Notes: generated by a model from the sequence alone, not told the origin. 64,000 bases of DNA from an uncultured Bacilli bacterium (GCA_934098485.1 CAKOOH010000001.1:68329-132328); one strand, 5' to 3'; positions 14,453 to 33,440 are shown, numbered from the stretch's first letter. Numbers and translations are program-made.

Positions 14453-15048
14453 CACCAAGAAAAAGTAAAAGACCAATAATTATTATTGGCTCTGAAGGTG
14501 AAGGTAGAAATACAGAAAAGTGTTATTTTGGAAACTTTTCAAATAATAGTTTAAGAATTAAATTTTCTACTGGTGGGAGTACTAATCCTAAAGGAATGGT
14601 TGATGATTTGATTAATTATATTCATAATATAGATGCTAAATCAGAAGATCACATAAGAACATTCTTAGTACTAGATACAGATTTAAGTGAAAAACGAATA
14701 AGTGAAATAAAAGAAATAGAACAGAAATGCAAAGATAATAATATTGAAATCATAACTTCGGCTCCAACATTTGAAATATGGTTTTTAATGCATTATAGAA
14801 ACAATAAATTAAAGTTTCTAACAAGTAAAGATGTAAAAAGGGAATTAGAAAAAATTAATGGTACATATTCAGAAACTATGGATATGTATAACAAAATTAA
14901 AAATCAAACAGATGATGCAAGAAGTACTGCACAATCTATTGAACAACAAATTATTAAAGATAGTGAAGATTTATTAAAATCTAATCCACATTCTAGTGTT
15001 TATAAAATATTAGATGCAATAGATGAATTTAATAATTTGAAAGATTAA
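14434..15048 (+). CDS. RloB-like protein (AbiLii-like, Toprim/OLD-related)
   Basis: RPIIIIGSEGEGRNTEKCYFGNF matches the RloB N-terminal EGExTExxYF motif. It overlaps the upstream ATPase gene by 19 nt. Confidence 0.5.
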   Translation: MARRYVAPRKSKRPIIIIGSEGEGRNTEKCYFGNFSNNSLRIKFSTGGSTNPKGMVDDLINYIHNIDAKSEDHIRTFLVLDTDLSEKRISEIKEIEQKCKDNNIEIITSAPTFEIWFLMHYRNNKLKFLTSKDVKRELEKINGTYSETMDMYNKIKNQTDDARSTAQSIEQQIIKDSEDLLKSNPHSSVYKILDAIDEFNNLKD

Positions 15049-15170
15049 ATAATTCTCTCTATATAACAAATATAAACATATGTTATAATGTAGTAAAGAA
15101 AGCGCTAGTACAGGCTTGATTAACAAGTTTATGTATTGGCGCTTTTTTAGTAGTAAAGGAGTATAAATAT

Positions 15171-17360
15171 ATGGAAGTTACTTTTAGAAATTATGAGACA
15201 AATAAAGATATTACACTTAATTCAGAAAAATCTTTATTAGTAATTTATGGTAAAAATGGTAGTGGAAAGACAACTTTATCGAGAAATAATTATTTTGATA
15301 AAAATTATGTTTTTAATGAAGATTTTATTTTTTCGAATGTTTATAATATTACAGAAACTGGTGCTTCGCAAACCGCTTCCACTAAAGAAAAATTTTCCGG
15401 ACTTTGGTTAGGCGAAGATATTGTAAAAATAAGAAAAGAAATTAGTAATATATTGGAAATTGAGAAAAAGATAAAAAATGATTTTCAAACTGAACAAACA
15501 AAATTACTAGATTTTTTTGCTAAAAATCAAATTCAAGTTAATATTTATGATAAAATCAAAGAATTAAATGATAAAGATTTTTGCTTGAATTTAGAAAAAT
15601 ATGATGAGCAAAAAGAAAACTATATTTCGACTTTAATTTTTAAAACCAATATAACAGATAAAGAAAAGTTTATTGAAAAATTAACATATTATAGAAAAAA
15701 TGATATTTATAATATGCTTGTTTCAAAGATAAAATCTAATAACTTATTATCTGAATTAATATTTGCAGATGTTAAAGGTTATATTGATAATATAAATATG
15801 AGGATAAGTCTATTAAGTAAGCAAAAAGAAATAATAGATGAAGTTGAAAAAATATATAAAGATGAAGAAATTACTAATGATCTAAAGGAAAAAATACAAG
15901 ATTGGTATGAAATCCATAAGGATAGGAATAAATGTGTATTTTGTGGCAATACAAATATAGAATCTGCAAAAACAAAATGGAAAAAAGTTTTTTTGAATGA
16001 ATTTATTGATTGCAAAAATAAATTAATAAAGGAATTAAGAATTGATTTAAATTATTGCGAAAATATTATCAATGAAAAACAATTTGCTGAAGTTGATAAA
16101 GATATTATTGACACTATTTCTAAATTGATCAACTATTTAAAAAAATACATTGAAGATACCGAAAAAAATGTATTTTCAAAATTTGAATATAAAGTGGAAT
16201 TTGTAAAAAAAGAAATTGTAGAATTAAATGATTTAATAAACAATTTAGTTAATTATGTTTTGAATAAAAAGAAAGATATCTTAGGTTTTTATCATAATTC
16301 ACAGCAATTTGTAGAAAAATTAAAAAAAGAAAAATTAGAATTAACTGATAAATTAATGGATGAAAAAGGCATTATAATAGCTGATAGTATAAACAAAAAA
16401 TTTGAAAAATTTGGATTAAATAAGAATATAAAGATAATTGTTGATAAACGCTCTACACCTCACAAATTTACATATTCTATCGAAAATCATAGTAATATTA
16501 ATGAATTAAGTGATGGTCAAAAACATAAATTAGCGCTAGCAATTTTTATGAATTATCTTGAAAATCACGATTTGAAAGGTAAAACAATTGTTATTGATGA
16601 TCCAGTGGTTTCACTAGACATTTCGAGTTATATTTTATTTAAACAATATTTATTAAATGATTTAATAATTCAAAAATTTGATGAAAGTACTAAATTGATA
16701 TTATTAACACATGATATCACATATTTATATATCCAATTGTCTAATATATTTGAGAATCAACATATGAGAAATATAACGCAAGTATTTAAATTGAATGGGG
16801 TTAAAATCGAAGAAATTCCATTAGACTTTATTAAAACAGATGACATCACACTATTTAGAGAAGCACTTGATAGTTTAACAAACATATCTGAACTAAGAAT
16901 ATTGAATGCAATAATAAATAAAATTTTCAGAATTGAAATAGACCTTAAGTTAAGGTTTTTTGGATTATCACTTACCGATAAAATAGGAATCGAAGAATTA
17001 AAAATTGATGAGGATAAAAAGAAAATAATTCGAGATTATGGGAAACACATTGTAGAAACAAGCAGAAGAGATCATCCGACCGATAGTGATATTCAACAAA
17101 GTTTATTATATTTAAAAGAAGTATCAGATATTTTAGGATTTAATGATTTTATCACAGATAACCATATTGAAAATATTAATAAAATAGTTAATGAACAAAT
17201 AGATGGACCAATAAATAGTGAGTTGTTTAATTTAATTGACTCTGTAAAGAAATTCCTAAAATCGGATAATAATGATGACTTTAAAAATTATATTGAACAT
17301 ACAAGGAATTCTTATACTCGTAATCTTATTGGTTTGGGGTTAGATGATTATTTCAATTAA
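15171..17360 (+). CDS. RloC/PrrC-like ABC ATPase with a coiled-coil zinc hook; putative abortive-infection anticodon-nuclease-type protein
   Basis: Walker A GKNGSGKTT. A long coiled coil contains CVFCGN (a CxxC hook). D-loop/Walker B IVIDDPVVSLD (AAA_13-like). The C-terminal roughly 200 aa are uncharacterised (..ETSRRDHPTDSD..). Confidence 0.4.
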   Translation: MEVTFRNYETNKDITLNSEKSLLVIYGKNGSGKTTLSRNNYFDKNYVFNEDFIFSNVYNITETGASQTASTKEKFSGLWLGEDIVKIRKEISNILEIEKKIKNDFQTEQTKLLDFFAKNQIQVNIYDKIKELNDKDFCLNLEKYDEQKENYISTLIFKTNITDKEKFIEKLTYYRKNDIYNMLVSKIKSNNLLSELIFADVKGYIDNINMRISLLSKQKEIIDEVEKIYKDEEITNDLKEKIQDWYEIHKDRNKCVFCGNTNIESAKTKWKKVFLNEFIDCKNKLIKELRIDLNYCENIINEKQFAEVDKDIIDTISKLINYLKKYIEDTEKNVFSKFEYKVEFVKKEIVELNDLINNLVNYVLNKKKDILGFYHNSQQFVEKLKKEKLELTDKLMDEKGIIIADSINKKFEKFGLNKNIKIIVDKRSTPHKFTYSIENHSNINELSDGQKHKLALAIFMNYLENHDLKGKTIVIDDPVVSLDISSYILFKQYLLNDLIIQKFDESTKLILLTHDITYLYIQLSNIFENQHMRNITQVFKLNGVKIEEIPLDFIKTDDITLFREALDSLTNISELRILNAIINKIFRIEIDLKLRFFGLSLTDKIGIEELKIDEDKKKIIRDYGKHIVETSRRDHPTDSDIQQSLLYLKEVSDILGFNDFITDNHIENINKIVNEQIDGPINSELFNLIDSVKKFLKSDNNDDFKNYIEHTRNSYTRNLIGLGLDDYFN

Positions 17361-17374
17361 AAAGACCTAGTCCA

Positions 17375-18614
17375 CTAAAGGACTAGGTCATCTTCTTTTT
17401 TATTATCTAAATCTTCATTATAATCATAATACTCAGCATCTTCATAATCAATAATTGTTTCTTTAGGTTCAGGTAATTCTTTCTGCTTACTTTCTAATAA
17501 TTTAGTATTTTGAACTTCTATAATTTGAACTATGTTCTCAAGTCTATTTTGGTACATATGAGAGTAGGTATTAAGTGTTTCATCAATTTTAGAATGTCCT
17601 AAGTACTTAGCTACTAATATTGGCTCCACTATCAATTAATAGCGATGCACAACTATGTCTAAAATCATGTACTCTTATATCTTTAACACCAGCTTTAAAA
17701 GCATTTTTAGTTTTTCTATCTCTTAATGTAGTTTCTGGTAATGGATCAATATCTCCAAAAACATACCAGTTATCATTGAAATTATAAAATCTACTACTAT
17801 CATCGTATAAATCTTTTAAGTAATTTAATAAGAAATTTGGAATAGGTATTGTTCTGTAACTAGACATTGTCTTGGGACTGGATACAGAGTAGGGTTTACC
17901 AGTATTTGGATCAGGTGTTTTAGTAATATTTTTATTTACTGATAAACAACCTTTTCTAAAGTTAATATCATTCCATGTTAATCCTCTAAGCTCACCATTT
18001 CTTAATCCATAATAGAATAATACTTGAAATGCACATACAAATTTAGGATCATCTTCAACAGATAAGAATTTTTGAAATTCTTCTGGTGTATAGAATAACA
18101 TTTCTCTTTTTCTTTCATTAGGATTAGTGAAATTAGTCATTTTATTATAAACTTTAATAAAATTAATATCATACCATTTAGTTCCAAAATTCATTATTGC
18201 TTTTAAATATTTATAAATACCATTTTTATATCTAGTAGATATCTTTTGCTTATTTATATATTGTCTCCACATTTCATAATGTCTAATATTAAATGATTCA
18301 AGTTTTATATTTAATAAAGGTTCTAAATAAACCATCATATTTTTATAATTATAAAGAGTAGTAGGTTTAACTTTATCTTCTTGATATTTATAATGCTCTT
18401 CAATTAATTCTTTAAAGGTTAAATCACTAAATTCAGTAATATTTTTAATATTAATTTTAAATTCTGCTTCATGATCTTTAGCTTCACGTCTAGTAGCAAA
18501 CTTTTTAGAGTGATATCTTCTGGGTCTTCCTAAGTAATCTCTATAAGTTAAATCGACCATCCATGTTCGACCATCTTTTGTAGCTTCTTTATTTTTTACT
18601 TGTCTTATAGCCAT
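17375..18614 (-). pseudogene. tyrosine recombinase/integrase, frameshifted (integrase paralog 1)
   Basis: ORF 17607-18614 has an N-terminal arm-binding-like domain and the catalytic-core boxes (..HDFRHSCASLL). ORF 17375-17635, in another frame, supplies LVAKYLGHSKIDETLNTYSHM, which includes the catalytic Tyr. The two ORFs overlap at 17607-17635. Confidence 0.7.
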
Positions 18615-18679
18615 AAATCTCCTCCTTTGTTATTTGTTTCATCGAATTCTCTTTGTGCTTCTTCATCCATTTGTCTTAG

Positions 18680-18975
18680 TCTTACACCTATTCTTTAGGA
18701 ACTCAAAGAAAGCCAATAAGTGGAAATGAAATACCAAATATTATAAAAGTAGTAAATAATTTTAAAGAGAATAAAGAATTTGATTATGATAAGGCTTTTG
18801 TTGTTTCTAAAGAAGAATTATTAAAAGATGATTGTTCTCTAACTTTAAATAAATACAAAAAAGTTGAAGTAGAAGAAAAAGAATATGAAAAACCAGAAGT
18901 AATTCTTAAAGAAATAATGGATATGGAGGAAGAATTTAAAACAAGACTTAAAGAACTTGGAGAGATGATTAAATG
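18680..18975 (+). pseudogene. hsdM: 3' remnant of the type I RM methyltransferase hsdM (about 98 codons, no start codon)
   Basis: The frame opens after TAG 18677-18679 with no ATG near the 5' end. The translation ...FDYDKAFVVSKEELLKDDCSLTLNKYKKVE...EEFKTRLKELGEMIK resembles an HsdM C-terminus. Its stop overlaps the hsdS start (ATGA). Confidence 0.55.
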
Positions 18976-20079
18976 AAATATCTAAAAATAAAAGATATTA
19001 TTGTAAATACTTCTCCAGAAAAAGTCCCAGTTGGAACTACTCCCTACATTGAAATAGGTGATATTGATATATTTAATAAAACATATCAACATAAAGACAA
19101 AAAATCTGTTAGCGGAGCTAAATACGCATTAAAAGACTCAATTATAGTATCAACTGTAAGGCCTACTAGAGGAGCAATTTCTATAATAAAAGAAGAAAAA
19201 ATAACTGTATCTAACGCATTTGCTATTATAAATGTAGATAAAGAACAATGTAATTTTAAATATTTATTTTATATGATAAATAGCAATAAATTTTATCAAT
19301 ATTTAGGATCTAATTCAAAGGGAGCAACTTATCCTACTTGTTCGAGAGAAGATGTTTATAATTATGAAATTGCATTACCTTCCTTAGACGAACAAAACAA
19401 AATAGTTAAAATATTCGACAACATATCTAATAGTATTATTGTTAAGAAACAACAGGTATTTAAACTAGAACAATTAATTAAATCACAATTTATCAAAATG
19501 TTTGAAAAAAATAACGATTATAAAACATTTAAATTAGAAGAGATTGGATATATGCAAACTGGTGGAACTCCATCTAGAAAAAATAATGAATATTTCAAAG
19601 GAAATATAAATTGGTTTACTGCTGGAGAATTGAATAGCCTGTTTATTAATGATTCTATTGAAAAAATAACTGTCGATGCATTAGAACATAGTTCTGCAAA
19701 ATTGTTTAAAGAAAACAGCTTATTGATAGGAATGTATGATACAGCGGCTATGAAAATGGGTATTCTAAAACATGAAGCAGCTTCGAATCAAGTATGTACA
19801 AATTTTTATCCCAAAGATAATAATGTAAATATAATTTGGTTATATTATTATCTCAACCATCACAAAGAAGATTTGCTAAACGAAAGAAAAGGAATCCGTC
19901 AAAAAAATATAAGTCTGGCTATATTAAAGAATTATTCAGTTAAGTTATATTCAATTATGATTCAAAATAAGTTTGCTAACATAGTAAAACGAATCGATAA
20001 ACAGAAATATGAATTTGAAAAACAATTAGAAAAATTAAAAGAATTACAAGAATCATTGATGAAAGAGTATTTCGGATAA
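18973..20079 (+). CDS. hsdS: type I restriction-modification specificity subunit HsdS (two TRDs)
   Basis: 368 aa with two target-recognition halves separated and followed by conserved coiled-coil repeats (LPSLDEQNKIVKIFD.. and ..LKELQESLMKEYF). Confidence 0.8.
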   Translation: MKYLKIKDIIVNTSPEKVPVGTTPYIEIGDIDIFNKTYQHKDKKSVSGAKYALKDSIIVSTVRPTRGAISIIKEEKITVSNAFAIINVDKEQCNFKYLFYMINSNKFYQYLGSNSKGATYPTCSREDVYNYEIALPSLDEQNKIVKIFDNISNSIIVKKQQVFKLEQLIKSQFIKMFEKNNDYKTFKLEEIGYMQTGGTPSRKNNEYFKGNINWFTAGELNSLFINDSIEKITVDALEHSSAKLFKENSLLIGMYDTAAMKMGILKHEAASNQVCTNFYPKDNNVNIIWLYYYLNHHKEDLLNERKGIRQKNISLAILKNYSVKLYSIMIQNKFANIVKRIDKQKYEFEKQLEKLKELQESLMKEYFG

Positions 20080-20146: not shown

Positions 20147-22876
20147 ATGGGTAGAATAAAACCAGAAGTTGAAATTAAATATATTTGTAGTGTGATTGAT
20201 AAAAACATTGTTGCACATTCTAAATTGAAAGATAGGGGATTATTATCAGAAAATATTCTTTCACAATTGAGAAATTTAACCGAAGATATAGCTATATTGA
20301 TTAATAATAAAGAGAATTCTTTAAATTTGGATTGCCATTACGATAATGTTGACACTTCAATGGATTTTGTTGCTGGAAAGAGTAAGTATAAATACATAAA
20401 GAAATTTCATGATTTTCTTCAATCTACTGTTTCTCATTATACTCCTGGAGAAAATGATGCAGAAAGATTAATGTTATATTATTTTAGATATTTGTGCATG
20501 TTTAAACAAACTTTATTAGATGAGTGTTCATTAAATATCCTTGATAAATTAGAGGATTTTCCGATATATGAAGATGAATTGACCAAAAATCATTATAAAG
20601 AGATATGCAAAAAAATAGAAGAAGTAGAAGATTTAACTAACAAAAGTTTAAAAAGAGGTAAGTTTTATGTTAATAAATGCAGGCCAATATATGCTTTTGG
20701 GAAACTATATTATGAGTTGACTTTAACAAAAGCGACAGATTATGTTAATAAATTTGAACGAATTTTAATGTATTCGAAACACTATATTCCAGATAATTAT
20801 TCTATAAAATTATCATATATAGAAAAAGAATTAAAAATTTTTTCATATGATTCTAAGATTAAAGTTATTGATAATTATATTATTTCAATTAGACCATGCG
20901 AAATAAGAAACATAGGAAGATTATTAGGAATTGATAAAAATGTTGATGATAATTATAATGAATATATTAGCTTAATGAAAATACTAAAGGAAGAAGAAAT
21001 AAATCTACTAGAATTATTAATGTCAGACAATATTAAATACAATAATTATTTAGCAATTATTAAGGAAAAAGCTCAAAACAATAATATATCTGAATTATTA
21101 GATAGATTACATGATAGATTAAGCCAAGAACTACCTGGTAATAATATTTTAAGGTATTGTTTAGTTAAAATGGAAAATTCTGTAATTAAGGATCAATTCC
21201 AACGTGTTCAAAATGAACATATTGGCAATCTTTATATTAAAAACCAAAGCATTCCATTCGATTCAATGCCATATGCTATGTCTCCATATAAGCATAATGT
21301 AAGTTGGTTTCATTTGGTTAGTGCAATTGATAATGATGGTCGAGAATATGAGCTACTTGGAAAAAGTATAAAATACAATTCAGAAATGAATAATAAATTA
21401 TATACAGATTTAGATGAAGTAGAAAAGTTTGGTAATGTAGATTCTCTTATAAAAAAATACAACGACGCACTTATATTGTATGGTATTGATTCTTCTGATA
21501 AAAGTAAGATAATTAAAGAAAATAATCTTTTGTTCATAAATTCATATGAAAAAAATTCTATTGAAATAATTAAAAAACTAAAAGCTTATATGTATAAACC
21601 ATCAGAAGAAATAATAGATACTTTTTCGAATAATATTTTAAATTATCCATTAGTAGACTTAACAGATGATAAAATAGAAATAACTAAAAAAATGTTTAAA
21701 AATAATTCTATTGTATTTATACATGGCCCTGCTGGAACTGGAAAAACTAAGATGTTAGAAGTAGTAGCAACAGCTTTTATAAATTATAAAAAAATATATT
21801 TATCTAATACAAATACATCAGTTGAAAATCTTAGAAGAAGAATTCTAAAATATGATGAAGAAAATTCCAATTTTGAAACAACATCACATTACATTAAATA
21901 TAATAATAATGATTATGATATTTTAATAATTGATGAAGGAAGTACTATCAGTAATGAAGAAATGCTTAAGGTATTAAATAAACAACAATATAAGCTGATA
22001 GTATTATCTGGAGATGTCTTTCAAATTGAATCTATAAAATATGGAAATTGGTTTTCTTTATCATATAATATATTTAAAAATGATTTCGTTTTTGAATTAA
22101 TTAAAACAAACAGAACTGATGATAAAGAATTATTAGAACTATGGAAACTAATAAGAGATAATAATGATCAGGCATATAATAAAATATGTAATCAGGAATA
22201 TTCATCTCTGCCAAATGAGAGTATTTTTAATAAAATAAGTGATGATGAAATAATATTATGTTTAAACTATGATGGATTATTTGGAATAAACAATATAAAT
22301 AAACTTCTACAAGAGAAAAACTCTAATAAAGAATATAATATTGGTATTGACTCATATAAGATTGATGATCCAATTGTATTTAATGATTGTCCTAGATTCA
22401 ATAATCTATATAATAATTTAAAGGGAAAAATTAAAAGTATAGAATTAGATGATGAAAATGATAGAGTATGGTTTACAATTTTAGTAGATGATTTTTTGCT
22501 TGATGAACCATTTAAATACGAAATACTTGATTATGTTGGATATAAGACTTTAATAAAGTTTTATGTTAATAATTTTAAGGATACTAATGATGATGAAAAT
22601 GGTTATGATCATATTATTCCATTTAATCTTGCATATGCAATTTCCATTCATAAAGCACAAGGTTTAGAATATGATTCTGTTAAAATAATAATCACTTCTA
22701 ACGTCGAAGATGATATTACAAAGAATATTTTTTATACAGCAATTACTAGAACAAAAAAATATTTAAAAATATTTTGGAGTTCTGAAAGTCAAGTAAAAAT
22801 ATTTGATCAAATGAAAAAGAGAAACAATTCGAGAGACATTTCAATTCTAAAACAAAAAATGAATATTAATTTATAA
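20147..22876 (+). CDS. 909-aa protein with a C-terminal SF1 RecD/Pif1-like helicase domain (AAA_30/UvrD_C_2-like) and a roughly 500-aa uncharacterised N-terminal region
   Basis: Motif I IFIHGPAGTGKTKM. Motif II LIIDEGSTIS. Motif III SGDVFQ. C-terminal SIHKAQGLEYDSVKII...FYTAITRTKKYLKIF. The N-terminal half has no recognisable motif. The gene has its own RBS and an upstream terminator. Confidence 0.55.
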   Translation: MGRIKPEVEIKYICSVIDKNIVAHSKLKDRGLLSENILSQLRNLTEDIAILINNKENSLNLDCHYDNVDTSMDFVAGKSKYKYIKKFHDFLQSTVSHYTPGENDAERLMLYYFRYLCMFKQTLLDECSLNILDKLEDFPIYEDELTKNHYKEICKKIEEVEDLTNKSLKRGKFYVNKCRPIYAFGKLYYELTLTKATDYVNKFERILMYSKHYIPDNYSIKLSYIEKELKIFSYDSKIKVIDNYIISIRPCEIRNIGRLLGIDKNVDDNYNEYISLMKILKEEEINLLELLMSDNIKYNNYLAIIKEKAQNNNISELLDRLHDRLSQELPGNNILRYCLVKMENSVIKDQFQRVQNEHIGNLYIKNQSIPFDSMPYAMSPYKHNVSWFHLVSAIDNDGREYELLGKSIKYNSEMNNKLYTDLDEVEKFGNVDSLIKKYNDALILYGIDSSDKSKIIKENNLLFINSYEKNSIEIIKKLKAYMYKPSEEIIDTFSNNILNYPLVDLTDDKIEITKKMFKNNSIVFIHGPAGTGKTKMLEVVATAFINYKKIYLSNTNTSVENLRRRILKYDEENSNFETTSHYIKYNNNDYDILIIDEGSTISNEEMLKVLNKQQYKLIVLSGDVFQIESIKYGNWFSLSYNIFKNDFVFELIKTNRTDDKELLELWKLIRDNNDQAYNKICNQEYSSLPNESIFNKISDDEIILCLNYDGLFGINNINKLLQEKNSNKEYNIGIDSYKIDDPIVFNDCPRFNNLYNNLKGKIKSIELDDENDRVWFTILVDDFLLDEPFKYEILDYVGYKTLIKFYVNNFKDTNDDENGYDHIIPFNLAYAISIHKAQGLEYDSVKIIITSNVEDDITKNIFYTAITRTKKYLKIFWSSESQVKIFDQMKKRNNSRDISILKQKMNINL

Positions 22877-24784: not shown

Positions 24785-25432
24785 ATGAATGAATTAGTAC
24801 CAGAGTTTAATGATTCCTTATTAATTGATTCTTCAGATATAATCGGTGATTATTTAGAATTGGGAATTGATAGTATTTTAGATAATGAAAGTTTGAAAGA
24901 AATACCCATTATTAAGACATTTATAGGTGTAGGAAAAATTACAAAGAGTATTAGAGAAAGAAACTTAATGAAGAATCTTGCAATTTTTATAAATGAACTT
25001 AATAGTGGAAAAATAGATAAAGAAAAACTTAGTAAGCATAAGGAAGAGTTAAGACAAAATCCTAGAAAAGCAGAAAAGGAATTAGGAAGAATTTTAATAA
25101 TTTTAGAACAAACGATAGATAACATTAAATCATCAATATTAGGAAAACTCTATAAAGCATATATTAACCAAGAAATTGATTGGGATGGGTTTGCTGAATT
25201 TAGTGAAATAACTAATAGACTTTTTATGTTTGATATAAACATTCTTAACGTCATGTGGTCTAAAGAGTATAATGCTTATATCGAACAAAAAGATGATAAT
25301 TTTAGAATAGAAAGAATGTATTCATTAGGAATAATTGGTAATATATTTCCATCTATCAATGAAACTAAACATTTACATGGAAGAGTATTGAATGGATTAG
25401 GTAAAAAATATTGCGATATAATTTTTAGATAG
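24785..25432 (+). CDS. hypothetical protein (215 aa), first gene of a two-gene operon of unknown function
   Basis: Strong RBS AAGGAGGG. No recognisable motif and no TM segment. Confidence 0.5.
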   Translation: MNELVPEFNDSLLIDSSDIIGDYLELGIDSILDNESLKEIPIIKTFIGVGKITKSIRERNLMKNLAIFINELNSGKIDKEKLSKHKEELRQNPRKAEKELGRILIILEQTIDNIKSSILGKLYKAYINQEIDWDGFAEFSEITNRLFMFDINILNVMWSKEYNAYIEQKDDNFRIERMYSLGIIGNIFPSINETKHLHGRVLNGLGKKYCDIIFR

Positions 25433-25443
25433 GAGGTTAAATA

Positions 25444-26907
25444 TTGAAAGGATTAAAATTTTCTGAGTTATTTGAAGTTGAAAAAGAAATATTGGAAGAG
25501 GAGGGCTTTGTAGATCTTTCCCTTTTATGCGACTTGCCACTGTTTATAGATCCATTTTTAATATTTGGTAGTCAAAAAGAAGAATATCAATTATTAAATG
25601 ACGAAATAAATAAGTATTTATTATTTCTAAAAAATAAAGCTATTAATTATGATTTGACAAAAGGCTTATTAAAAAGTTGGTTTACTTTTTCTGAAGTCTC
25701 AAATAACTGGCTCGGGTACTGTAAATTTGGAAATAAGGGTTCTGGATTAGGAACAAAATTTGCAAAAAACTTATACTTTAATCTAAAAAACAAATTAAAT
25801 AATTTTGGTAGTAGTGATATTTTAAAAGTAGACCATATAGAAAAATTATGTCTAATAGATGACAATATAGGTTCCGATAATATTAGCGATTTTGTTGTAA
25901 ATATTATAAAAAAGTATTTCTTGGATAAAACACAAGCGTTTGCTCAAAAGTATTTAAAAAAAGAACATTGCAAATTGTTTAAAGTCGATAAAGTATACTT
26001 TGATTATGATTTAGAAAGATGGATGCCAAAGCAATACTATCTTCCATTTATCAATGATGAATATATTATATTAACACCTATAGATATGTTGACAAAAGAT
26101 TCTTCATGGTTAAACACAAATGATATGTTGGATAGATTTTATTTGATAGTAGAAAAAATACCAAATGAACAATTAAAATTTGAAATAAATAATTATTTAT
26201 CCTCACTATATAAAAAAGACATGACAAAAGAAGAAAAGAGAAAGGGACAATTAGATGTTATAAAAGAATTTCCTGTGTTGATAGATTACTATCTCTTAGA
26301 TCGTGAAGACACCATTGATGAAGCTTCTTCAAGAGGGATAGAAAAGAGCTTATTTATAGATGAAACAATACCAACAATTGTACAGGGAATAGCTAATGCA
26401 TTAAAAGAAACACAATTTTATGACTGCGATGATTCTTCATTTGAAGAGGCAAAAAAAAGAGCTTATTATTTGAAAAAATGTATTGAAGATAATGATGTTT
26501 ATAGGTTGTTCTATGATTCAAAAGGAAATGTTAGACTAACAAAAGAAGAAGATTTACAATTATTATTTAGATTAGTTTGTTTTGGTGTTATTTCTGATGT
26601 TAATAGAGAATGTAACAATGGACGAGGACCTGTAGATTATAAGTTTTCTAAATCTAACTTTGATAAGTCATTAATAGAATTTAAATTAGCTAATAATTCT
26701 AAACTAAAACAAAATTTAAAAAATCAAGTTCAAATTTACGAAAAAGCAAATGACACAAAAAAATCGATAAAAATTATTTTATATTTTACTGATAAAGAAA
26801 AAGAACGTGTAGATAAGATTTTGAAAGAATTAAAACTAACGAATGATGAATCTATTATCTTAATTGATGCAATTAATAATAAAAAGTCTGCTTCAAATGT
26901 TAAATAA
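25444..26907 (+). CDS. hypothetical 487-aa protein with a C-terminal RecB/Cas4-like PD-(D/E)xK nuclease motif
   Basis: TTG start 7 nt after RBS AGGAGG, 11 nt after the upstream stop. C-terminal ..GRGPVDYKFS...SLIEFKLANN..KNQVQIY gives the D...EFK...QxxxY pattern of RecB-family nucleases. The N-terminal roughly 350 aa are unassigned. Confidence 0.45.
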   Translation: MKGLKFSELFEVEKEILEEEGFVDLSLLCDLPLFIDPFLIFGSQKEEYQLLNDEINKYLLFLKNKAINYDLTKGLLKSWFTFSEVSNNWLGYCKFGNKGSGLGTKFAKNLYFNLKNKLNNFGSSDILKVDHIEKLCLIDDNIGSDNISDFVVNIIKKYFLDKTQAFAQKYLKKEHCKLFKVDKVYFDYDLERWMPKQYYLPFINDEYIILTPIDMLTKDSSWLNTNDMLDRFYLIVEKIPNEQLKFEINNYLSSLYKKDMTKEEKRKGQLDVIKEFPVLIDYYLLDREDTIDEASSRGIEKSLFIDETIPTIVQGIANALKETQFYDCDDSSFEEAKKRAYYLKKCIEDNDVYRLFYDSKGNVRLTKEEDLQLLFRLVCFGVISDVNRECNNGRGPVDYKFSKSNFDKSLIEFKLANNSKLKQNLKNQVQIYEKANDTKKSIKIILYFTDKEKERVDKILKELKLTNDESIILIDAINNKKSASNVK

Positions 26908-27011: not shown

Positions 27012-27362
27012 ATGGCAAGTAAAAGGCAAAAATTTAAACATTGGTCAAAAGAAGAAAAATTAAGGATAGTCAAAAAGATTGTTAATGAAGGTAAATCTAG
27101 TTATCAAGTAGCAAAAGAAGAAAATATTCAATCAACAGGAATGATTAGACATTGGGTAAAACTTTATATTGAGCAAGGAGAAAATGCATTAGTAAATAAA
27201 AAGAAACCAGGTAATCCTTTAAGTAAATATCAAAATAAAACGAACTTAACAAAAGAAGAACAATTAGAATACGAAAATATGAAATTAAGAATTGAGAATG
27301 AACTATTAAAAAAAGGATACCTAATGAAAGGAGATGGTACAATTGTAAAATTCATGAAGTAA
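27012..27362 (+). CDS. IS3-family transposase OrfA (HTH plus leucine zipper)
   Basis: MASKRQKFKHWSKEEKLRIVKKIVNEGKSSYQVAKEENIQ... is a typical IS3 OrfA. An A7 slippery run (A_AAA_AAA G) lies at 27308-27315, near its 3' end. Confidence 0.75.
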   Translation: MASKRQKFKHWSKEEKLRIVKKIVNEGKSSYQVAKEENIQSTGMIRHWVKLYIEQGENALVNKKKPGNPLSKYQNKTNLTKEEQLEYENMKLRIENELLKKGYLMKGDGTIVKFMK

Positions 27363-28249
27363 CTCAAATAAAATATGAAATAATCTAGAATTTAAGTAAG
27401 GAATATAATATTAAATCATTATGTTTGATAATGAAAGTATCTAGAAGTGGTTATTATAGATGGTTAAAAAATAAAAATATATTAAATCAACATGAAATTA
27501 ATCGTAAAGATTTAGGTGAATTAATTAAAGATATTCGCAAAAGAAAACCAAGTTACGGATATCATAAGATTAATGCAATAATAAGACGTGAAATTGGTTG
27601 AATTGTATCGGATAATTTAGTTCATAAGGTATGTAAAATATTAAATATTAAATCAAAAGCCAAACATTATAAATACAAGAAACTTGGAATGGAATCAATT
27701 AAATATTCAAATCAAATATGTGGTAATTGGAACACATCTAGACCATTTGAAAAAATAGTATCAGATACAACTACGTTTTGGTTTAAGAAAAAGAAATATG
27801 ATTGGACTTTCTATTTAGATATATTTAATAATGAAATAGTTGGTTATGATGTAAGGGATTCAATGCACGGCAATGGTATTATAAATCATAGAGAAGCACT
27901 GAATAATATGTTAAATAACAAAATAAAAAGAGGATATAAAGACCTAGAAACAATCGTTCACACTGATCAAGGTTCAGTATATTCCTCAGTGTCATTTAAC
28001 AATATATTCAATTCTTATAAAGTTACCAGATCTATGTCAAAAGCTGGCACACCAACAGATAATCCAGTTATCGAATCTAAAAATGGCTGGATTAAAAAAG
28101 AAATGTATATTGATTTTGACATAAATAATTATAACACAGTTCAAGAATTTATTGATGAATTTGTTTATGATAATAATTATTATAGACCTAGTTATGCATT
28201 AAATTATAAAACCCCCATCGAGTATAAAACTCAATTGGTGTTTAATTAG
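27314..28249 (+). pseudogene. IS3-family transposase OrfB (DDE/rve), interrupted by in-frame TAG and TGA stops
   Basis: The -1 frame contains ..SRSGYYRWLKNK..RKPSYGYHKINAII.. and the catalytic core HTDQGSVYSS..DNPVIESKNGWIKKE. In-frame stops lie at 27386-27388 (TAG) and 27599-27601 (TGA). Confidence 0.6.
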
Positions 28250-28286
28250 AACTTTTTGTGTCTACTTTTTGTTGACAACTTCAAAA

Positions 28287-29287
28287 CTAATCCTCGGTTT
28301 TATTATTATCTAAATTATCTATTACTGCAACTACTTCATCTAAAGTGCTTGTAAATAGATGTGAATAAGTTTTTAAAGTTTCTTCAACTTTTGTGTGACC
28401 TAAGTATTTTGCTACAACTTGAACATTAGCTCCTTTATTAACTAAAAGAGATGCACATGAATGTCTAAAATCGTGTAATCTAATTTGCTTAACATTAGCA
28501 AATTTACAGTTAACATTTTTATGATTAGTAAGTGTATTGCTACATACAGGAAGCATGTCTCCAGCAACAAAGAAATTATCATTGAATCCTGGTATCTTTT
28601 CTGCCTCGTTTTTCACCATTTTAAGGTCATTTGTGAGGACTTGTGGCATTTTTAATATTCTTATACTACTTTTTGTTTTAGGAACCGAGAATCACCAATT
28701 TTTAATGGAACCACGACGGTCATTAATTTGCTTGGAGATACTTAAAGTTCTATCTTTAAAATTGATATCTTTCCATTGTAATCCTCTAAGCACTCCACGT
28801 CTTAATCCACAGTAATATAATATTTCAAAAATACCAATCTATTTGATATCAGTTTCAACAGAAAGAAATTGTTTAAATTCTTCATAAGTAAAAAATAATT
28901 GTTCTTTAGGAAATTCATTAGAATCATTAAAGTTATACATTTTAGGATATACCTTAGCAAAGTTAAACTCATGCCAAGCAGTAGCATAATTCAAAATAGT
29001 TTTTAATAATTTATATATGTCATTTTTAGTTCTTGTAGCAAGATGAGTACTATTTATTTCATCATGCCATCTTTCAAAAGTAGGGTGGTTAAAATCTTTA
29101 AGTTTAACTTTATATAATGATTTTAAATAAGGCAATTTGTTGTTATAACCATATAATGTATTTTCCTTAACTTTATCTTTTCTAAAATATACTTTTCCAA
29201 ATAACTATCATAGTTATTATAAAAAGGATCAATAACCTTTTCACATTCTTCATCACTTATATCTTCATCAGTACATTTCCTTAACAT
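28287..29287 (-). pseudogene. tyrosine integrase paralog 2, multiply frameshifted and 3'-truncated by the IS
   Basis: Fragments 28287-28649 (..RLHDFRHSCASLLVNKGANVQVVAKYLGHTKVEETLKTYSHL..) and 28839-29135 are paralogous to integrase 1 (..FLSVEDDPK versus FLSVETDIK). The start is ATG 29287 with RBS GGAGGTG. The last codons are encoded by the IS right inverted repeat. Confidence 0.6.
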
Positions 29288-29416: not shown

Positions 29417-30652
29417 ATGGAACTAATAAACAACGTGAATAATTTAGATGGAAAAAATTGGCTTAGAAATGCAATTAATTTTTATGAATTAAAAACATTT
29501 GATTTAGAAGAAATACAAAAGAAGTTCTATGACCTTTGTTATAAAAAAAGAACTTCAGGAAAAACATTTTTAATTAATAGTGAATATAAGATTTTAAATT
29601 ATGATTTCACTTTTCAATATATTCATCATTTTGAAGAGTTAAAAAAAACATTTGATATAATAATAAATTCTTCATATAATTCTTATCATGCAATTTTAGT
29701 GGATGATGAATTAGATAACAATATTTTAATTTCAAAATCTATAACTGAATATGTAGAAAATTCTGGATTAGAATATAGAGGAAAGATAATTGTTAATTTC
29801 AAAGAAGAAAATATAACAAAAAAGGTTTTCTTAATACTTAATAGATTATCAGAGGTTAAACAAATAAAGTTAAAAAAACATGAAATCAACCACGAAAAGA
29901 AATCTGAATATGTTATATCAAGTAAAAGTAAAATTGATAAAATTGGATTAAAGCATCCTGCACCATATAGCTACAATGATATAGAATCGCTAATTGAAAA
30001 AGAAAATATACATGATAAGGTAATTTTGGATCCATTCTTAGGAATTGGTTCAACAATCATTGGAACTTATAAAACTAATTACAATATAGGGATTGAACTT
30101 AATAAAGAATATGTTGAGTTAATAAAAGAAAGAATTAAATTTTTAAATATCAGTGATTTAGATGATAGTAAATATAAAATAATTAATGGTAATTCTTCAA
30201 AAGAAATAAAAAAGATAGATCAAAATATTGATGTTGTTATTACATCACCACCATACTTCAATATTTTAAAAAATAAAAGTAAAGGTGTAAGACATGATAA
30301 AAGTCAAACAAGACAGGGGGTTGAATATTATAGTGAGTTAAAAGATGATATTGGGAATTTAGATGAATATGATGATTACTTAAAGGCAATGGAAAAAATA
30401 TTCAAAGAGTCATTTAATAAAATGAATAATGGCGGAAAGTTTTATTTAATAATTAGTGATTTTACAATAAATAAGAAAGAAACTGATATTCATTCTGATA
30501 TGATCCTTTTAATGAATAAAGTAGGATTTACATATAATGGTACTTCATATATCTTGCAAAATCAAAAAGCAATATATCCTTTTGGATATCCATATAAAAT
30601 TGTATTAAATCATATTTTTCAATATATAATTGTTTTTGAAAAGAGGTGGTAG
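29417..30652 (+). CDS. DNA methyltransferase (N4/N6 family, PF01555-like), RM operon gene 1
   Basis: AdoMet motif ILDPFLGIGSTIIG and catalytic motif VVITSPPYFN. The product is 411 aa with an N-terminal region of about 180 aa of unknown function. Confidence 0.65.
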   Translation: MELINNVNNLDGKNWLRNAINFYELKTFDLEEIQKKFYDLCYKKRTSGKTFLINSEYKILNYDFTFQYIHHFEELKKTFDIIINSSYNSYHAILVDDELDNNILISKSITEYVENSGLEYRGKIIVNFKEENITKKVFLILNRLSEVKQIKLKKHEINHEKKSEYVISSKSKIDKIGLKHPAPYSYNDIESLIEKENIHDKVILDPFLGIGSTIIGTYKTNYNIGIELNKEYVELIKERIKFLNISDLDDSKYKIINGNSSKEIKKIDQNIDVVITSPPYFNILKNKSKGVRHDKSQTRQGVEYYSELKDDIGNLDEYDDYLKAMEKIFKESFNKMNNGGKFYLIISDFTINKKETDIHSDMILLMNKVGFTYNGTSYILQNQKAIYPFGYPYKIVLNHIFQYIIVFEKRW

Positions 30653-31917
30653 TAATGAATAAACAAAGTAAAGACTATAAAGCTAGAAAGAAAATTGGAC
30701 AGTTTTTTACTGAAATCAAATTGGCTGAAAAACTAATTGAAATGTTTGAATTGGATTTTAACAATAAGGTTATAGTTGAACCATCATGTGGGGATGGTGT
30801 ATTTATTAAACAAATTATAAAAAAATCACCATTATTCAAAAATATCATTGGAATTGATATAGATAAAAAGGCACTTAGTAAATTATCTGGATTAAGTGAT
30901 AATATTGAATTAAAAAATAAAGATTTTCTAAAATTAAAATTCTCTAATGTTGATGTTGTGATTGGTAATCCGCCATTTAATTTAAAAGTCGATGACTTTG
31001 TTGATTCAACTGAAGCTTTTATTTCAAAAGGAATTGATATTTTAAAACCTGGAGGCGAATTAATATTAATAATTCCGAATACTGTTCTTAGAAGTCAAAA
31101 ATATCAAAAACTAAGAACAAAAATTTTAGATGAAACAAAAATTATAGGCATTGTAGATACAAGAGGACATGAGTTCCTGGGAGCTGATGTTGAAACGGTT
31201 GCAATATATTTGAAAAAAGAAAAAATAAGTGCACAAGAATATTACTATATTTCCAATGGCCAAAAGAGAAATATTGTTTTAGAAAGAAATATAAGAGATA
31301 CAATTTTATTGTATAATCGAAATTACTATAACATTATAAATAGTAAAATATTAGGTTGTAATTTGGAAGAATTATTCTATGTTAGAAGAGGTAATTGCAA
31401 GGCAAATGGGTTAAAAGGAAGAGATCTAGATTTTTACAATGATATTTATTATATGCCAGACGGTAATAGTGTATTTATAGCTATACAAAATATAGCGTAT
31501 AGATTGACTGCAAATGTAGTTAGAGGAGATCTTGACAAAATTTCTGATACTATAACAATGCTAATTCCAAAAAAGAATATGACAATTTTAGAAATGAAGT
31601 ATATTGCAAATTATTTAAATTCATCAGTTGCTTATTACAATTTGCATATAAATTGTTTAAATAATAGCAGGTTAACTATACATATGGATAAATATTATAT
31701 TGATGATATCAAAATACCAAGTTGTGATAATAAAGTATTGGATCATATGAGCAATATATTAAAAGGTCACGAGAGAAAACAAGATATTATTAATATTAGA
31801 AATGACTTCTTTTATAATACGTTTTCGTTGGATTTAGAAGTAATAAATGAAATAGAAAAATTTTGGAAGGCTCCAAAATATAAACTAAAAGAAGGAAGTA
31901 TGGGGTATGAATGTTGA
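30646..31917 (+). CDS. gamma-class N6-adenine DNA methyltransferase (Eco57I/TaqI-like), RM operon gene 2
   Basis: Motif X GQFFTE. Motif I EPSCGDGVF. Motif IV GNPPFN. A C-terminal TRD-like region follows. Overlaps gene 1 by 7 nt. Confidence 0.65.
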   Translation: MVVMNKQSKDYKARKKIGQFFTEIKLAEKLIEMFELDFNNKVIVEPSCGDGVFIKQIIKKSPLFKNIIGIDIDKKALSKLSGLSDNIELKNKDFLKLKFSNVDVVIGNPPFNLKVDDFVDSTEAFISKGIDILKPGGELILIIPNTVLRSQKYQKLRTKILDETKIIGIVDTRGHEFLGADVETVAIYLKKEKISAQEYYYISNGQKRNIVLERNIRDTILLYNRNYYNIINSKILGCNLEELFYVRRGNCKANGLKGRDLDFYNDIYYMPDGNSVFIAIQNIAYRLTANVVRGDLDKISDTITMLIPKKNMTILEMKYIANYLNSSVAYYNLHINCLNNSRLTIHMDKYYIDDIKIPSCDNKVLDHMSNILKGHERKQDIINIRNDFFYNTFSLDLEVINEIEKFWKAPKYKLKEGSMGYEC

Positions 31918-32401
31918 AAATGTTGTAAACTATGAAAATGAAATTGCAATGTATCCAGATATAATGGAGAGTATTAAGTTTTATATGGATTTATTTGGAT
32001 ATGAATGTAAGGTATTTGAAACTTGGCATGAGTTTAAGCCTGAATTGCGTGAGAGATTTCAAAGAGAAATAGATATATTAGGTGATTTTGGTAAGCCAGA
32101 TATTACGGTCTTATATAGAAAATCAAGTGATGAAGATGATAAAGTGTTAATAATAGAAGCTAAATTGAATAGTGTTGTTATGAAAGATATAGCTCAAGCA
32201 AAAATGTATGGTGATATCTTTAAGGCAGATAAGGTCTTTTTAGTTGCTCCTTATGAATTAAGGAGAATGATTGAACAATACTATTATGTAAATAAAAATA
32301 TTTTTAGATATGATGGCGATAAAGAAATTAAATATGTAAGGCTTTCTGATTGTAATCTACTTATACAACAATCAATCCCATCGGGAGGTGAGTTGTTTTG
32401 A
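31907..32401 (+). CDS. small PD-(D/E)xK nuclease-fold protein (candidate restriction endonuclease catalytic subunit)
   Basis: GKPDITVLYRK...VLIIEAKL fits the PD...ExK motif. Overlaps gene 2 by 11 nt. Confidence 0.4.
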   Translation: MNVENVVNYENEIAMYPDIMESIKFYMDLFGYECKVFETWHEFKPELRERFQREIDILGDFGKPDITVLYRKSSDEDDKVLIIEAKLNSVVMKDIAQAKMYGDIFKADKVFLVAPYELRRMIEQYYYVNKNIFRYDGDKEIKYVRLSDCNLLIQQSIPSGGELF

Positions 32402-33402
32402 TAACTGCAAATGAATCGTATTTATTAGGAATCCTATTTGGTAAGGGTTCTATTATTGTTACTGATAATGGTAATGTAGTGTTAAATTTTAGGGTTAAAT
32501 TTAGAAGACCTACTGATGGATCTTTGAGAACTGATAATATTCATACTCAAAGTGAAGAAAGAGCATATGTAGAAACATTAAAATCAAAACTATCTAATGA
32601 CTTTTCTGAAATAATTTATTTACTAAGAGATACATGGAACATTAATTCAAAGATAGATCTTCCTAATTCATATAGTTTAGATGATTGGAAAATGAAAGAA
32701 ATACTTATATCAACCGAAGAAATACCATGTGATTATCAAAGATTATGTGAATTGCTTAATGTTGGATACTTAGAAAATAATGTATTAAAAAAATTTCCTT
32801 TTCATCTAAATTTAGAAAATAATAAAATGAATGCGTTGTCTTTTTTACAGGGAATATGTGATTCTTGTTCGCTTGTTCCAAATGAAGCATCAAGTAGCTA
32901 TGGAGGAGATGGAGATTCTAGAATTCAACTTGAACCATCTCAAGAAAGATGGGAAATACCTATTGGGATTTGTAGGGTATTTCAAGTTGGATTATCAATA
33001 CCTGTAAATAACATAAATTGGGGCCATCCGCAAATTAGAGGCATGGATGTGTGGAGAGGCCAAAATCACCAATTTAGAGTTAGTTTAAAAAATATTCCTC
33101 CACAAATTGAATTATACAGATTATCATATAAAAGAGAAGAATATCGTAATTTATATGCTAGAAGAAATACATCTTATGAAGAAGCAGATTTATGCCCAGT
33201 TAGTAAGAGAGTAAAAGAGGGAGAAGTAATTCACGTATATAGAACATCAAATCCTGAGATTGATAATGATTTATTGGATGAAAGAATTAGAGGTATTAGC
33301 ATAGATGTATCACAAAGAAAGAGCCTTATAGTATGTAAGCTATTAGGGTGTACTCAGTGCCAAGACTATTTTGATGTTGAAATTGATAAAAATGATAATT
33401 AA
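32398..33402 (+). CDS. hypothetical 334-aa protein; candidate DNA-recognition partner of the small nuclease
   Basis: TTG start overlapping the upstream TGA (TTGA), with RBS GGGAGGTGAG 6 nt upstream. No recognisable motif. Confidence 0.35.
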   Translation: MITANESYLLGILFGKGSIIVTDNGNVVLNFRVKFRRPTDGSLRTDNIHTQSEERAYVETLKSKLSNDFSEIIYLLRDTWNINSKIDLPNSYSLDDWKMKEILISTEEIPCDYQRLCELLNVGYLENNVLKKFPFHLNLENNKMNALSFLQGICDSCSLVPNEASSSYGGDGDSRIQLEPSQERWEIPIGICRVFQVGLSIPVNNINWGHPQIRGMDVWRGQNHQFRVSLKNIPPQIELYRLSYKREEYRNLYARRNTSYEEADLCPVSKRVKEGEVIHVYRTSNPEIDNDLLDERIRGISIDVSQRKSLIVCKLLGCTQCQDYFDVEIDKNDN

Positions 33403-33408
33403 AATAAT

Positions 33409-33440
33409 TTGCTTAGATTTTGATAATCTAGGCTTTTTTA
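33409..33440 (+). terminator. rho-independent terminator after the RM-like operon
   Basis: GCTTAGATT-ttgat-AATCTAGGC hairpin (one G-U pair) followed by a T6 run. Confidence 0.6.

Follow-up and report, generated by a model that had tools for sequence, protein, structure and literature searches.

A predicted split restriction enzyme with a LAGLIDADG-fold subunit in a four-gene operon of an uncultured Bacilli bacterium

What is the role of a 334-amino-acid (aa) protein of no known family that is encoded together with two DNA methyltransferases (MTases) and a small nuclease? The question is raised by four genes in a 64,000-nucleotide (nt) stretch of DNA from an uncultured Bacilli bacterium (GCA_934098485.1, CAKOOH010000001.1:68329-132328), which is called the window here and in whose numbering positions are given. 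An earlier note on this DNA had proposed the four genes, here termed M1, M2, S and L, as a candidate Type IIS-like or novel variant of a restriction-modification (RM) system. We think it probable that the operon is a Type II RM system of the Type IIS/IIT kind and that its restriction enzyme is a complex of L and S, in which L is the reader and S the cutter. What is added to the earlier note is that the 334-aa unknown is predicted to have a catalytically degenerate LAGLIDADG fold and to be part of a large superfamily, unannotated so far, of restriction nucleases that occur in split and in fused form. The operon consists of the following features.

29417..30652, + strand: M1 gene, 411 aa, ATG start
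30655..31917, + strand: M2 gene, 420 aa from ATG 30655 (423 aa if GTG 30646 is used)
31907..32401, + strand: S gene, 164 aa, 19.5 kDa, ATG start
32398..33402, + strand: L gene, 334 aa, 38.6 kDa, TTG start
33411..33439, + strand: terminator-like hairpin with T6 (hairpin with T6 at 33411-33433), end of the operon

L had no match in Pfam, NCBIfam, PADLOC or PHROG, and searches of the PDB sequences (phmmer and profile hmmsearch) returned noise only. Its homologs form 78 clusters, and the few that are named by any source are all 'hypothetical'. The AlphaFold model of L is confident (pLDDT 89.1, pTM 0.90). The order helix, two strands, helix, two strands, helix occurs in it two times, in residues 4-120 and again in 143-256, and a C-terminal region completes the chain. 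In Foldseek, every one of the top 24 PDB matches of this model is a LAGLIDADG-fold protein, with bI3 maturase (E 3.6e-5), I-DmoI (9e-5), I-PanMI, PI-SceI, I-AniI, I-SceI, I-OnuI variants and the WhiA N-domain among the matches. Target-normalised TM-scores are 0.48-0.56 for the compact matches and 0.56 for the WhiA N-domain.

The two LAGLIDADG motifs are recognizable in L in degenerate form, one at the end of each predicted interface helix: YLLGILFGKGSI (residues 8-19, nt 32419-32454) at the first and FLQGICDSCSLV (residues 149-160, nt 32842-32877) at the second. When the L family was compared by hhalign with I-CreI, the sequence of which was verified against the PDB, L Y8-I19 fell on I-CreI L11-I23 and YLLGILFGKGSI was in register with LYLAGFVDGDGSI, which places L K16 opposite the catalytic D20; this alignment is not significant and serves as a check of the register only. 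Conservation was counted over 74 full-length homologs of L. The first canonical catalytic-acid position is K16 in all 74, and the second is C157 in 67/74 and otherwise S or A. The canonical position is R in a sister clade in which L and S are fused and N in a clade found in Lactiplantibacillus plantarum (both described below), and in no clade examined is either position an acid. D155, at position 6 of motif 2 and two residues before C157, is invariant. Judged from these positions, the canonical LAGLIDADG catalytic acids are absent from L, as they are from WhiA and the maturases (PMC3384342). L is most likely, according to its model, a double LAGLIDADG fold that has lost the canonical catalytic acids, and it likely reads rather than cuts DNA because these acids are replaced (K16, C157).

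Other residues of L are strictly kept as well. R36, P38, R44, D46, N47, R175, Q177, E179, R184, W185, the W208-G-H-P211 string, R214, H224, Q225 and R227 are invariant in 74/74 homologs, and the hallmarks of the family are NWGHPQIR (nt 33016-33039) and QNHQFR (nt 33061-33078). Four nearly invariant cysteines of the C-terminal region, C266, C313, C318 and C321 (nt 33190-33360), look like a zinc site. The basic isoelectric points (pI) of the family (median 8.9 for the L homologs and 8.45 for the N-terminal part of the fused clade) are consistent with DNA binding. In all loci examined the gene for L closes an RM operon; it lies in no intron or intein and is not a free-standing homing element.

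Searches of Pfam, NCBIfam, PADLOC and PHROGs with S were uninformative as well, the PADLOC output being limited to weak PD-T4-6 matches, and phmmer and profile hmmsearch against the PDB sequences gave noise only. The S homologs form 42 clusters, and again the few with a name from any source are 'hypothetical'. The earlier note had described S as a minimal PD-(D/E)XK protein, and both the conserved residues and the predicted fold bear this out. The motifs are KPDITV (aa 63-68) and IIEAKL (aa 82-87), with D65, E84 and K86 as catalytic candidates (nt 32093-32167); these three residues, together with P64 and with AQAK at residues 96-99, are invariant in an alignment of 31 sequences (30 homologs and the window protein). 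The earlier note had made conservation of the D/E/K residues among homologs a test of its reading, and the reading passes it. The AlphaFold (AF2) model is confident (pLDDT 91.6, pTM 0.88), with D65 just before the strand 66-71 and E84 and K86 at and just past the end of the strand 79-85, and its top PDB matches in Foldseek are the nuclease domains of PaqCI, Can2, BamHI, EcoT38I and MspJI (probability 0.82-0.99). On this model S would be essentially a bare PD-(D/E)XK catalytic core, without room for a specificity of its own. The folds assigned to S and L from the two models are both likely to be correct.

The two remaining genes point to an RM system. M1 matches PF01555 N6_N4_Mtase (E 4.9e-18) in two pieces because its motif I (DPFLGIGST, aa 205-213, nt 30029-30055) comes before its motif IV (SPPY, aa 277-280, nt 30245-30256); it also matches many PADLOC Type II MTase models. 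By sequence comparison this motif order is a known permutation, already represented in known enzymes, because two of the PADLOC models align residues 180-410 of M1 in one piece. The N-terminal ~150-180 residues of M1 had no independent family match in profile searches and are presumed to be the target-recognition region, and M1 orthologs are full-length in all related loci. M2 matches PF07669 Eco57I and PF02384 N6_Mtase (E about 1e-12) and has the motif order of the gamma class, X (GQFFTE), I (EPSCGDGVF) and IV (NPPF); the ~220 aa after NPPF are its presumed recognition domain. The claim of the earlier note that the operon encodes two different DNA methyltransferases, the second of the gamma class, is thus confirmed by profiles, and the motifs that it had quoted from M1, M2 and S were all located. 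In these families SPPY, as in M1, suggests N4-cytosine and NPPF, as in M2, N6-adenine; M1 probably modifies N4-cytosine and M2 N6-adenine. The note had also suggested an asymmetric recognition site from the presence of two MTases, and this agrees with the Type IIT rule that two MTases imply an asymmetric site (Pingoud et al. 2014, PMC4081073). By this analogy, an asymmetric target of M1 and M2 is implied by two MTases of different classes. The assignment of the operon to an RM system is highly likely.

Do L and S form one enzyme? We searched 16 fetched loci with the four window proteins by tblastn. All four genes were present in every locus with enough flank, 11 times in the order M1-M2-S-L and 2 times rearranged. 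In the rearranged loci, which represent one distant relative, L precedes S and both MTases are convergent on the other strand. S and L are adjacent in every related locus, the rearranged ones included. Conservation of L across these loci equals that of M1, and S is less conserved than L.

A profile built from the L alignment was then searched against 1.84 billion representatives and gave 136 matches, and through these the fused sister clade became apparent. Its proteins of 533-574 aa (~545 aa typical, and ~540-557 aa for those among the 136 matches) match L with residues ~3-335 and the S profile with their C-terminal ~150 residues; one of them, P0181, matches the S profile (A2) with an E-value of 2.6e-10 and contains IKPDVV...FIEAK. 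The fused form comprises at least 205 clusters and occurs in Acinetobacter baumannii, Empedobacter falsenii, Nanoarchaeota, Patescibacteria and Heimdallarchaeia. Its descriptive names are all 'hypothetical' except for a single label, from JGI, that derives from RNA polymerase subunit M / TFIIS. The fused gene lies beside two MTases in 4/4 contexts examined (an N6_N4 enzyme and an Eco57I-type or Dam-type enzyme), with a helix-turn-helix (HTH) gene in 2/4. In 4 contexts (L017, L019, L020 and L022, about 7620-8146) a translationally coupled gene after the fused one encodes a protein of 158-168 aa, a divergent paralog of the nuclease fold in which ExK is altered (PD...ELVxxNR) and PD is also lost once. 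This paralog may be a pseudo-nuclease with which the nuclease domain forms a heterodimer. By blastp, window S resembles the C-terminal domain of the fused proteins (1.5e-10) more than it does the extra paralog (6.8e-4).

In a third clade, an L-like protein of ~290 aa (profile E 1e-14; GNG at motif 1) and an S-like protein of ~165 aa (E 1e-6; IEAK) are partnered by a single C5 MTase of ~700 aa. This clade was found on the 6.5-kb plasmid p9 of the cultured strain L. plantarum P9 and in a Lachnospiraceae phage. On the plasmid (NZ_CP060181.1, locus L027, 690-4316), the 700-aa C5 MTase, the L-like protein of 292 aa and the S-like protein of 168 aa have a YafQ toxin gene alongside. The L+S pair is therefore combined with three different MTase sets, and a constant pair with changing MTase partners is the signature of a restriction enzyme. 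Further variants were found at the margin of the superfamily. P0151, P0178, P0182, P0196 and P0235 (991-1299 aa; locus L031, 1211-4186), without any Pfam match, carry at the C-terminus only the second of the two LAGLIDADG-like domains of L and its C-terminal module (profile ~140-325); P0151 adjoins an N6_N4 MTase, and these proteins may be a further single-chain restriction architecture. P0135 (555 aa) has an extra N-terminal LAGLIDADG-like module (CYLLGLAKA..., FLQGVINAGAV) ahead of its L-like region.

L and S are thus taken as one enzyme because they are adjacent in every related locus, are fused in the sister clade and stay joined across three MTase sets. The proposal of the earlier note that the nuclease is split into a 164-aa and a 334-aa protein is supported by this strict co-occurrence and by the natural single-chain fusions. 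One could suppose instead that S is a stand-alone restriction enzyme and that L, which lies outside the nuclease, is a regulator or a domesticated relic of a homing endonuclease. L has none of the canonical LAGLIDADG catalytic residues, WhiA shows that such domains can turn into regulators, and the window operon has no HTH controller, unlike some of the related loci. However, a large sister clade has L and S in one covalent chain, their adjacency survives both the rearrangement of the gene order and the exchange of MTase partners, L is as conserved as M1, and a 164-aa homodimer would be unable to read the asymmetric site implied by MTases of different classes. We therefore consider it very improbable that L stands outside the enzyme.

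Several observations weigh against the reading of L as a LAGLIDADG-fold reader and of S as the sole cutter. The LAGLIDADG assignment of L comes from AlphaFold and Foldseek, and profile-sequence methods give no link: the Pfam LAGLIDADG families had no match above noise to L and ten superfamily members, and hhalign of the L family against I-CreI aligns a 16-residue motif only, with a probability of 0.6 per cent. The query-normalised TM-scores of L are modest (0.3-0.4), and the Foldseek E-values of S are weak (7e-3 and weaker). L of the window is acidic (pI 5.45), unlike the L family; this low pI was considered as an argument against DNA binding and was rejected in view of the basic median of the family. 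Type IIT enzymes have two different catalytic sites; here one canonical site, that of S, is recognisable, which does not by itself account for the cutting of both strands, and the invariant acids of L lie off the canonical LAGLIDADG positions. D46, D155, E163 and E179, together with K16, are invariant (74/74 or 73/74 homologs) near the would-be LAGLIDADG active centre, and a non-canonical catalytic site in L is possible.

The last two points lead to the rival explanation that L is also catalytic, nicking one strand through a non-canonical site at the LAGLIDADG centre (e.g. D155, E179, E163 and K16), while S cuts the other. There is only one PD-(D/E)XK domain in the window clade and in the L. 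plantarum clade, every clade examined retains D155 of motif 2, and in the Class III enzymes BtsI, BsrDI and BspD6I there are precedents for a large subunit that is a nickase on its own beside a small catalytic subunit. On the other hand, the two canonical acid positions are acidic in no clade, and E163 and E179 are apparently not kept in the fused or L. plantarum sequences that were read, which fits specificity determinants of one clade better. In addition, the second nuclease-fold paralog that the fused clade has as an extra subunit suggests that the scaffold itself is not cutting. A nicking L, which would make the system a true Class III heterodimer, is the main rival but an unlikely explanation.

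We return to the reading of L as the reader and S as the cutter. From the gene set, the conserved linkage, the sister-clade fusion, the two predicted folds and the residue conservation, we infer the following scheme for the methylated bases, the DNA-binding subunit, the stoichiometry and the recognition and cleavage sites. The recognition sequence would be asymmetric, with one strand methylated by M1 and the other by M2. The restriction enzyme, going by the genes and the predicted models alone, would be a non-covalent complex of L and S. L would be a monomeric two-domain LAGLIDADG-fold scaffold that acts as the sequence-reading subunit, and its C-terminal Cys4 module and WGHPxxR/HQ surface are candidates for holding S. 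L would position S next to the site, where S would be catalytic via D65, E84 and K86. Double-strand cleavage could be achieved by two copies of S, in a transient dimerisation of the FokI type, or by sequential cuts. The simplest conjecture for how both strands may be cut is, by analogy, that S dimerises in the manner of FokI; the small subunit of BtsI is reported to self-associate. The division of labour, in which L reads and S cuts, is held with moderate confidence.

The asymmetric two-domain scaffold predicted for L suits the asymmetric site implied by the two MTases. The pattern of conservation is also in keeping with it. The clade-specific residues R36, R44, D46, N47, E163, Q177 and E179 fit specificity contacts common to a clade whose MTases are orthologous, and the residues kept throughout the superfamily, namely G-x-G of motif 1, D155, R175, W185, WGHPxxR and HQ, fit structure, backbone contacts or docking of S.

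Is such a system already known? An established pattern among Type IIT systems pairs a large subunit for specificity with a small catalytic one that is non-specific, alongside two MTases (PMC4081073; PMC3017599). The nearest functional analogues are, in organisation, the heterodimeric Type IIS/IIT enzymes BtsI, BsrDI and BspD6I, with BtsI closest in organisation and size. BtsI and BsrDI ('Class III', Chan, Stoddard and Xu 2011) likewise combine two separate MTases with two subunits, the large one of ~38 kDa and the small one of 18-19 kDa. The likeness is close enough that the operon might be taken for a diverged member of this characterised family (GCAGTG or GCAATG, 2/0) and hence as already known. 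The BtsI ORF S has 495 bp, which is the length of the window S gene, and ORF L has 987 bp as against 1005 bp here; the subunits are of 18.6 and 37.6 kDa as against 19.5 and 38.6 kDa. The small subunit of BtsI has PD-Xn-ExK with the catalytic Asp at D65, as in S, and no specificity of its own. BtsI is accompanied by two amino-MTases and BsrDI by an N6A and an N4C MTase, and all of these are Bacillota systems. Window L even has the string ID87-X13-E101-X12-Q114R115, spaced as D58/E72/Q85R86 of BtsI-B.

This string is not conserved in the L family, where D87 is found in 22/74, E101 in 25/74 and Q114 in 4/74 homologs, whereas the site residues of BtsI and BsrDI are essential when mutated. By the published motifs that were compared, the essential PD-X13-17-E-X12-QR of the BtsI/BsrDI large subunit is not conserved in L, and D58/E72/QR85-86 is found in 0/368 of the proteins gathered. 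Homology to BtsI by motif was therefore rejected and the D-X13-E-X12-QR string regarded as a chance match. The spacing of PD and ExK is X18 in S as against X12-14, with E84/K86 instead of E78/K80, and PD-X12-14-ExKxK of BtsI-A and BsrDI-A occurs in no S homolog. In addition, L has a predicted LAGLIDADG fold and no match to any PADLOC model, the genes are ordered and oriented differently, S has only the weak PD-T4-6 matches, and every homolog named by a source is 'hypothetical'. The domains of Mva1269I were reportedly described by Armalyte et al. in 2005 as EcoRI-like and FokI-like. No depletion of BtsI, BsrDI, BsmI or BsrI sites was seen in the window, where the counts are too low to weigh. 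Membership in the BtsI/BsrDI family is thus improbable. As an observation in its own right, the BtsI-B-like ID-X13-E-X12-QR string at 32656-32742 (L residues 87-115) is a trap for motif-based annotation.

BspD6I / BstNBI (a 604-aa large nickase and a 186-aa catalytic subunit) resembles the proposed enzyme in that the large subunit recognises, the small PD-(D/E)XK subunit cuts and the genes are adjacent. It differs in that the large subunit of BspD6I has its own PD-(D/E)XK domain, whereas L, with 334 aa, has no recognisable nuclease domain. The large subunit of BspD6I also has a FokI-like recognition region. The BspD6I subunits were absent from the top 50 Foldseek matches of S. The combination of a specific binding module with a non-specific PD-(D/E)XK cleavage module is also that of the FokI-type Type IIS enzymes, and the fused sister clade is exactly such a single chain; unlike in FokI, the predicted binding module has a LAGLIDADG fold, not a winged-helix, and the window encodes separate polypeptides.

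On the side of the fold, L is like WhiA/DUF199 and the group I intron maturases (bI3), which have lost their nuclease activity and are among its top structural matches, in combining two LAGLIDADG domains, predicted in the case of L, with a replacement of the metal-binding acids. WhiA is a transcription regulator with a C-terminal HTH and the maturases bind RNA, whereas L has a Cys4 module, an RM operon and a nuclease as partner or fusion. The monomeric homing endonucleases I-DmoI, I-AniI, I-SceI and I-OnuI share with L the overall fold, the pseudo-two-fold asymmetry and the motif register. Unlike them, L lacks D/E at the LAGLIDADG helix ends (I-CreI D20; I-DmoI D20/E117), has MTases alongside and is in no intron or intein.

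The four open reading frames lie on the + strand in the order M1-M2-S-L (29417-33402, ~4 kb) and are coupled by tight junctions, as the earlier note had described. Of the overlaps of 7, 11 and 4 nt that it had given, those of M2/S (11 nt) and S/L (4 nt, TTGA) hold, and GGGAGGTG precedes the TTG of L by 8 nt. The 7-nt overlap of M1 and M2 hinges on GTG 30646 and is probably a 2-nt gap. ATG 30655 is the more likely start of M2, because it is preceded by a AGAGGTGG site, begins 2 nt past the M1 stop (TAG 30650-30652) and is the start that gene callers assign in metagenome contigs of identical sequence (420 aa). A hairpin does follow L, but the word 'strong' by which the terminator had been described is overstated, since the stem has 9 bp with 3 G-C pairs only before the T6; the G+C content of the window is ~25%. 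The exact S protein is present on 19 human gut metagenome contigs, Hadza samples among them.

In a scan of GTDB the family was found in only 8 species genomes; the carriers are metagenome-assembled genomes (MAGs) of Bacilli, Clostridia/Eubacteriales, Acutalibacteraceae and Oscillospiraceae, one 'uncultured bacterium' MAG and Candidatus Izemoplasma sp. B36. A tblastn search of L against plasmids had no match. Integrases, a Mob protein and serine recombinases occur in the flanks of the relatives. In the window, IS3-type transposase fragments lie just upstream of the cassette at 27012-29135 (HTH part 27012-27362, rve part 27689-28249), and two open reading frames on the - strand (28287-28649 and 28839-29135) are, by eye, tyrosine recombinase fragments. 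These flanking genes and fragments indicate that the RM cassette is mobile, and in the window it abuts a decayed mobile element, which would be its carrier. No hidden fifth component was seen, as the genes downstream of L differ among the loci and match neither profile. Directly before the cassette, some relatives have a DUF4357 protein (L001 3961-4794, L004 3883-4930 and L005 314-1361), with which L004 and L005 combine a small HTH_26 protein; the window has no copy of the HTH or the DUF4357 protein.

Several genes farther upstream in the window were recorded. At 13184-17360 the genes for an AAA_21 ATPase (422 aa) and an RloB-like protein (204 aa) overlap, and one for an AAA_13 ATPase (729 aa) comes next; together they look like a defence-island pair or trio. 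At 17607-20079 a tyrosine integrase (- strand) adjoins a gene for the specificity (S) subunit of a Type I RM system; no hsdM or hsdR was recognisable among its scanned neighbours, and the gene is possibly an orphan or what is left of a shufflon. A 909-aa SF1 helicase with ~500 N-terminal residues outside any family match is encoded at 20147-22876, and two adjacent proteins of 215 and 487 aa (the latter with a TTG start), with no Pfam match, at 24785-26907.

How new would a restriction subunit with a LAGLIDADG fold be? The folds of restriction endonucleases are said, by Orlowski and Bujnicki in 2008 and by Pingoud et al. in 2014, to be PD-(D/E)XK, HNH, GIY-YIG, phospholipase-D and half-pipe. 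We found no LAGLIDADG-fold restriction subunit described in the open-access literature. The review of Pingoud et al. 2014 mentions LAGLIDADG nowhere (PMC4081073). In a 2012 review, WhiA and the maturases are the only LAGLIDADG relatives among host proteins, and its separate section on restriction-enzyme relatives of homing endonucleases notes no LAGLIDADG case (PMC3384342).

It is possible, and we put it forward tentatively as a proposal that may well fail, that bacteria, archaea, plasmids and phages carry a large unannotated superfamily of restriction enzymes with a domesticated LAGLIDADG reader, in split, fused and three-part versions, and that its members are either natural rare cutters or hybrid enzymes. 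In the first case their sites would be longer than those of the MTases, since LAGLIDADG scaffolds contact long asymmetric targets. In the second, a remodelled LAGLIDADG centre would nick one strand and the PD-(D/E)XK subunit would cut the other. The p9 system of L. plantarum P9 is a convenient experimental model for the superfamily, the window operon has only 4 kb, and SMRT sequencing detects both m6A and m4C. In either case the enzymes would be a natural template for meganuclease-nuclease fusions. If L is what its model says, these proteins would be nature's fused and in-trans counterpart of the engineers' combination of a meganuclease-type reader with a non-specific nuclease. The LAGLIDADG fold would then be newly shared between homing endonucleases and restriction enzymes, and several hundred 'hypothetical proteins' encoded beside methyltransferases would be explained.

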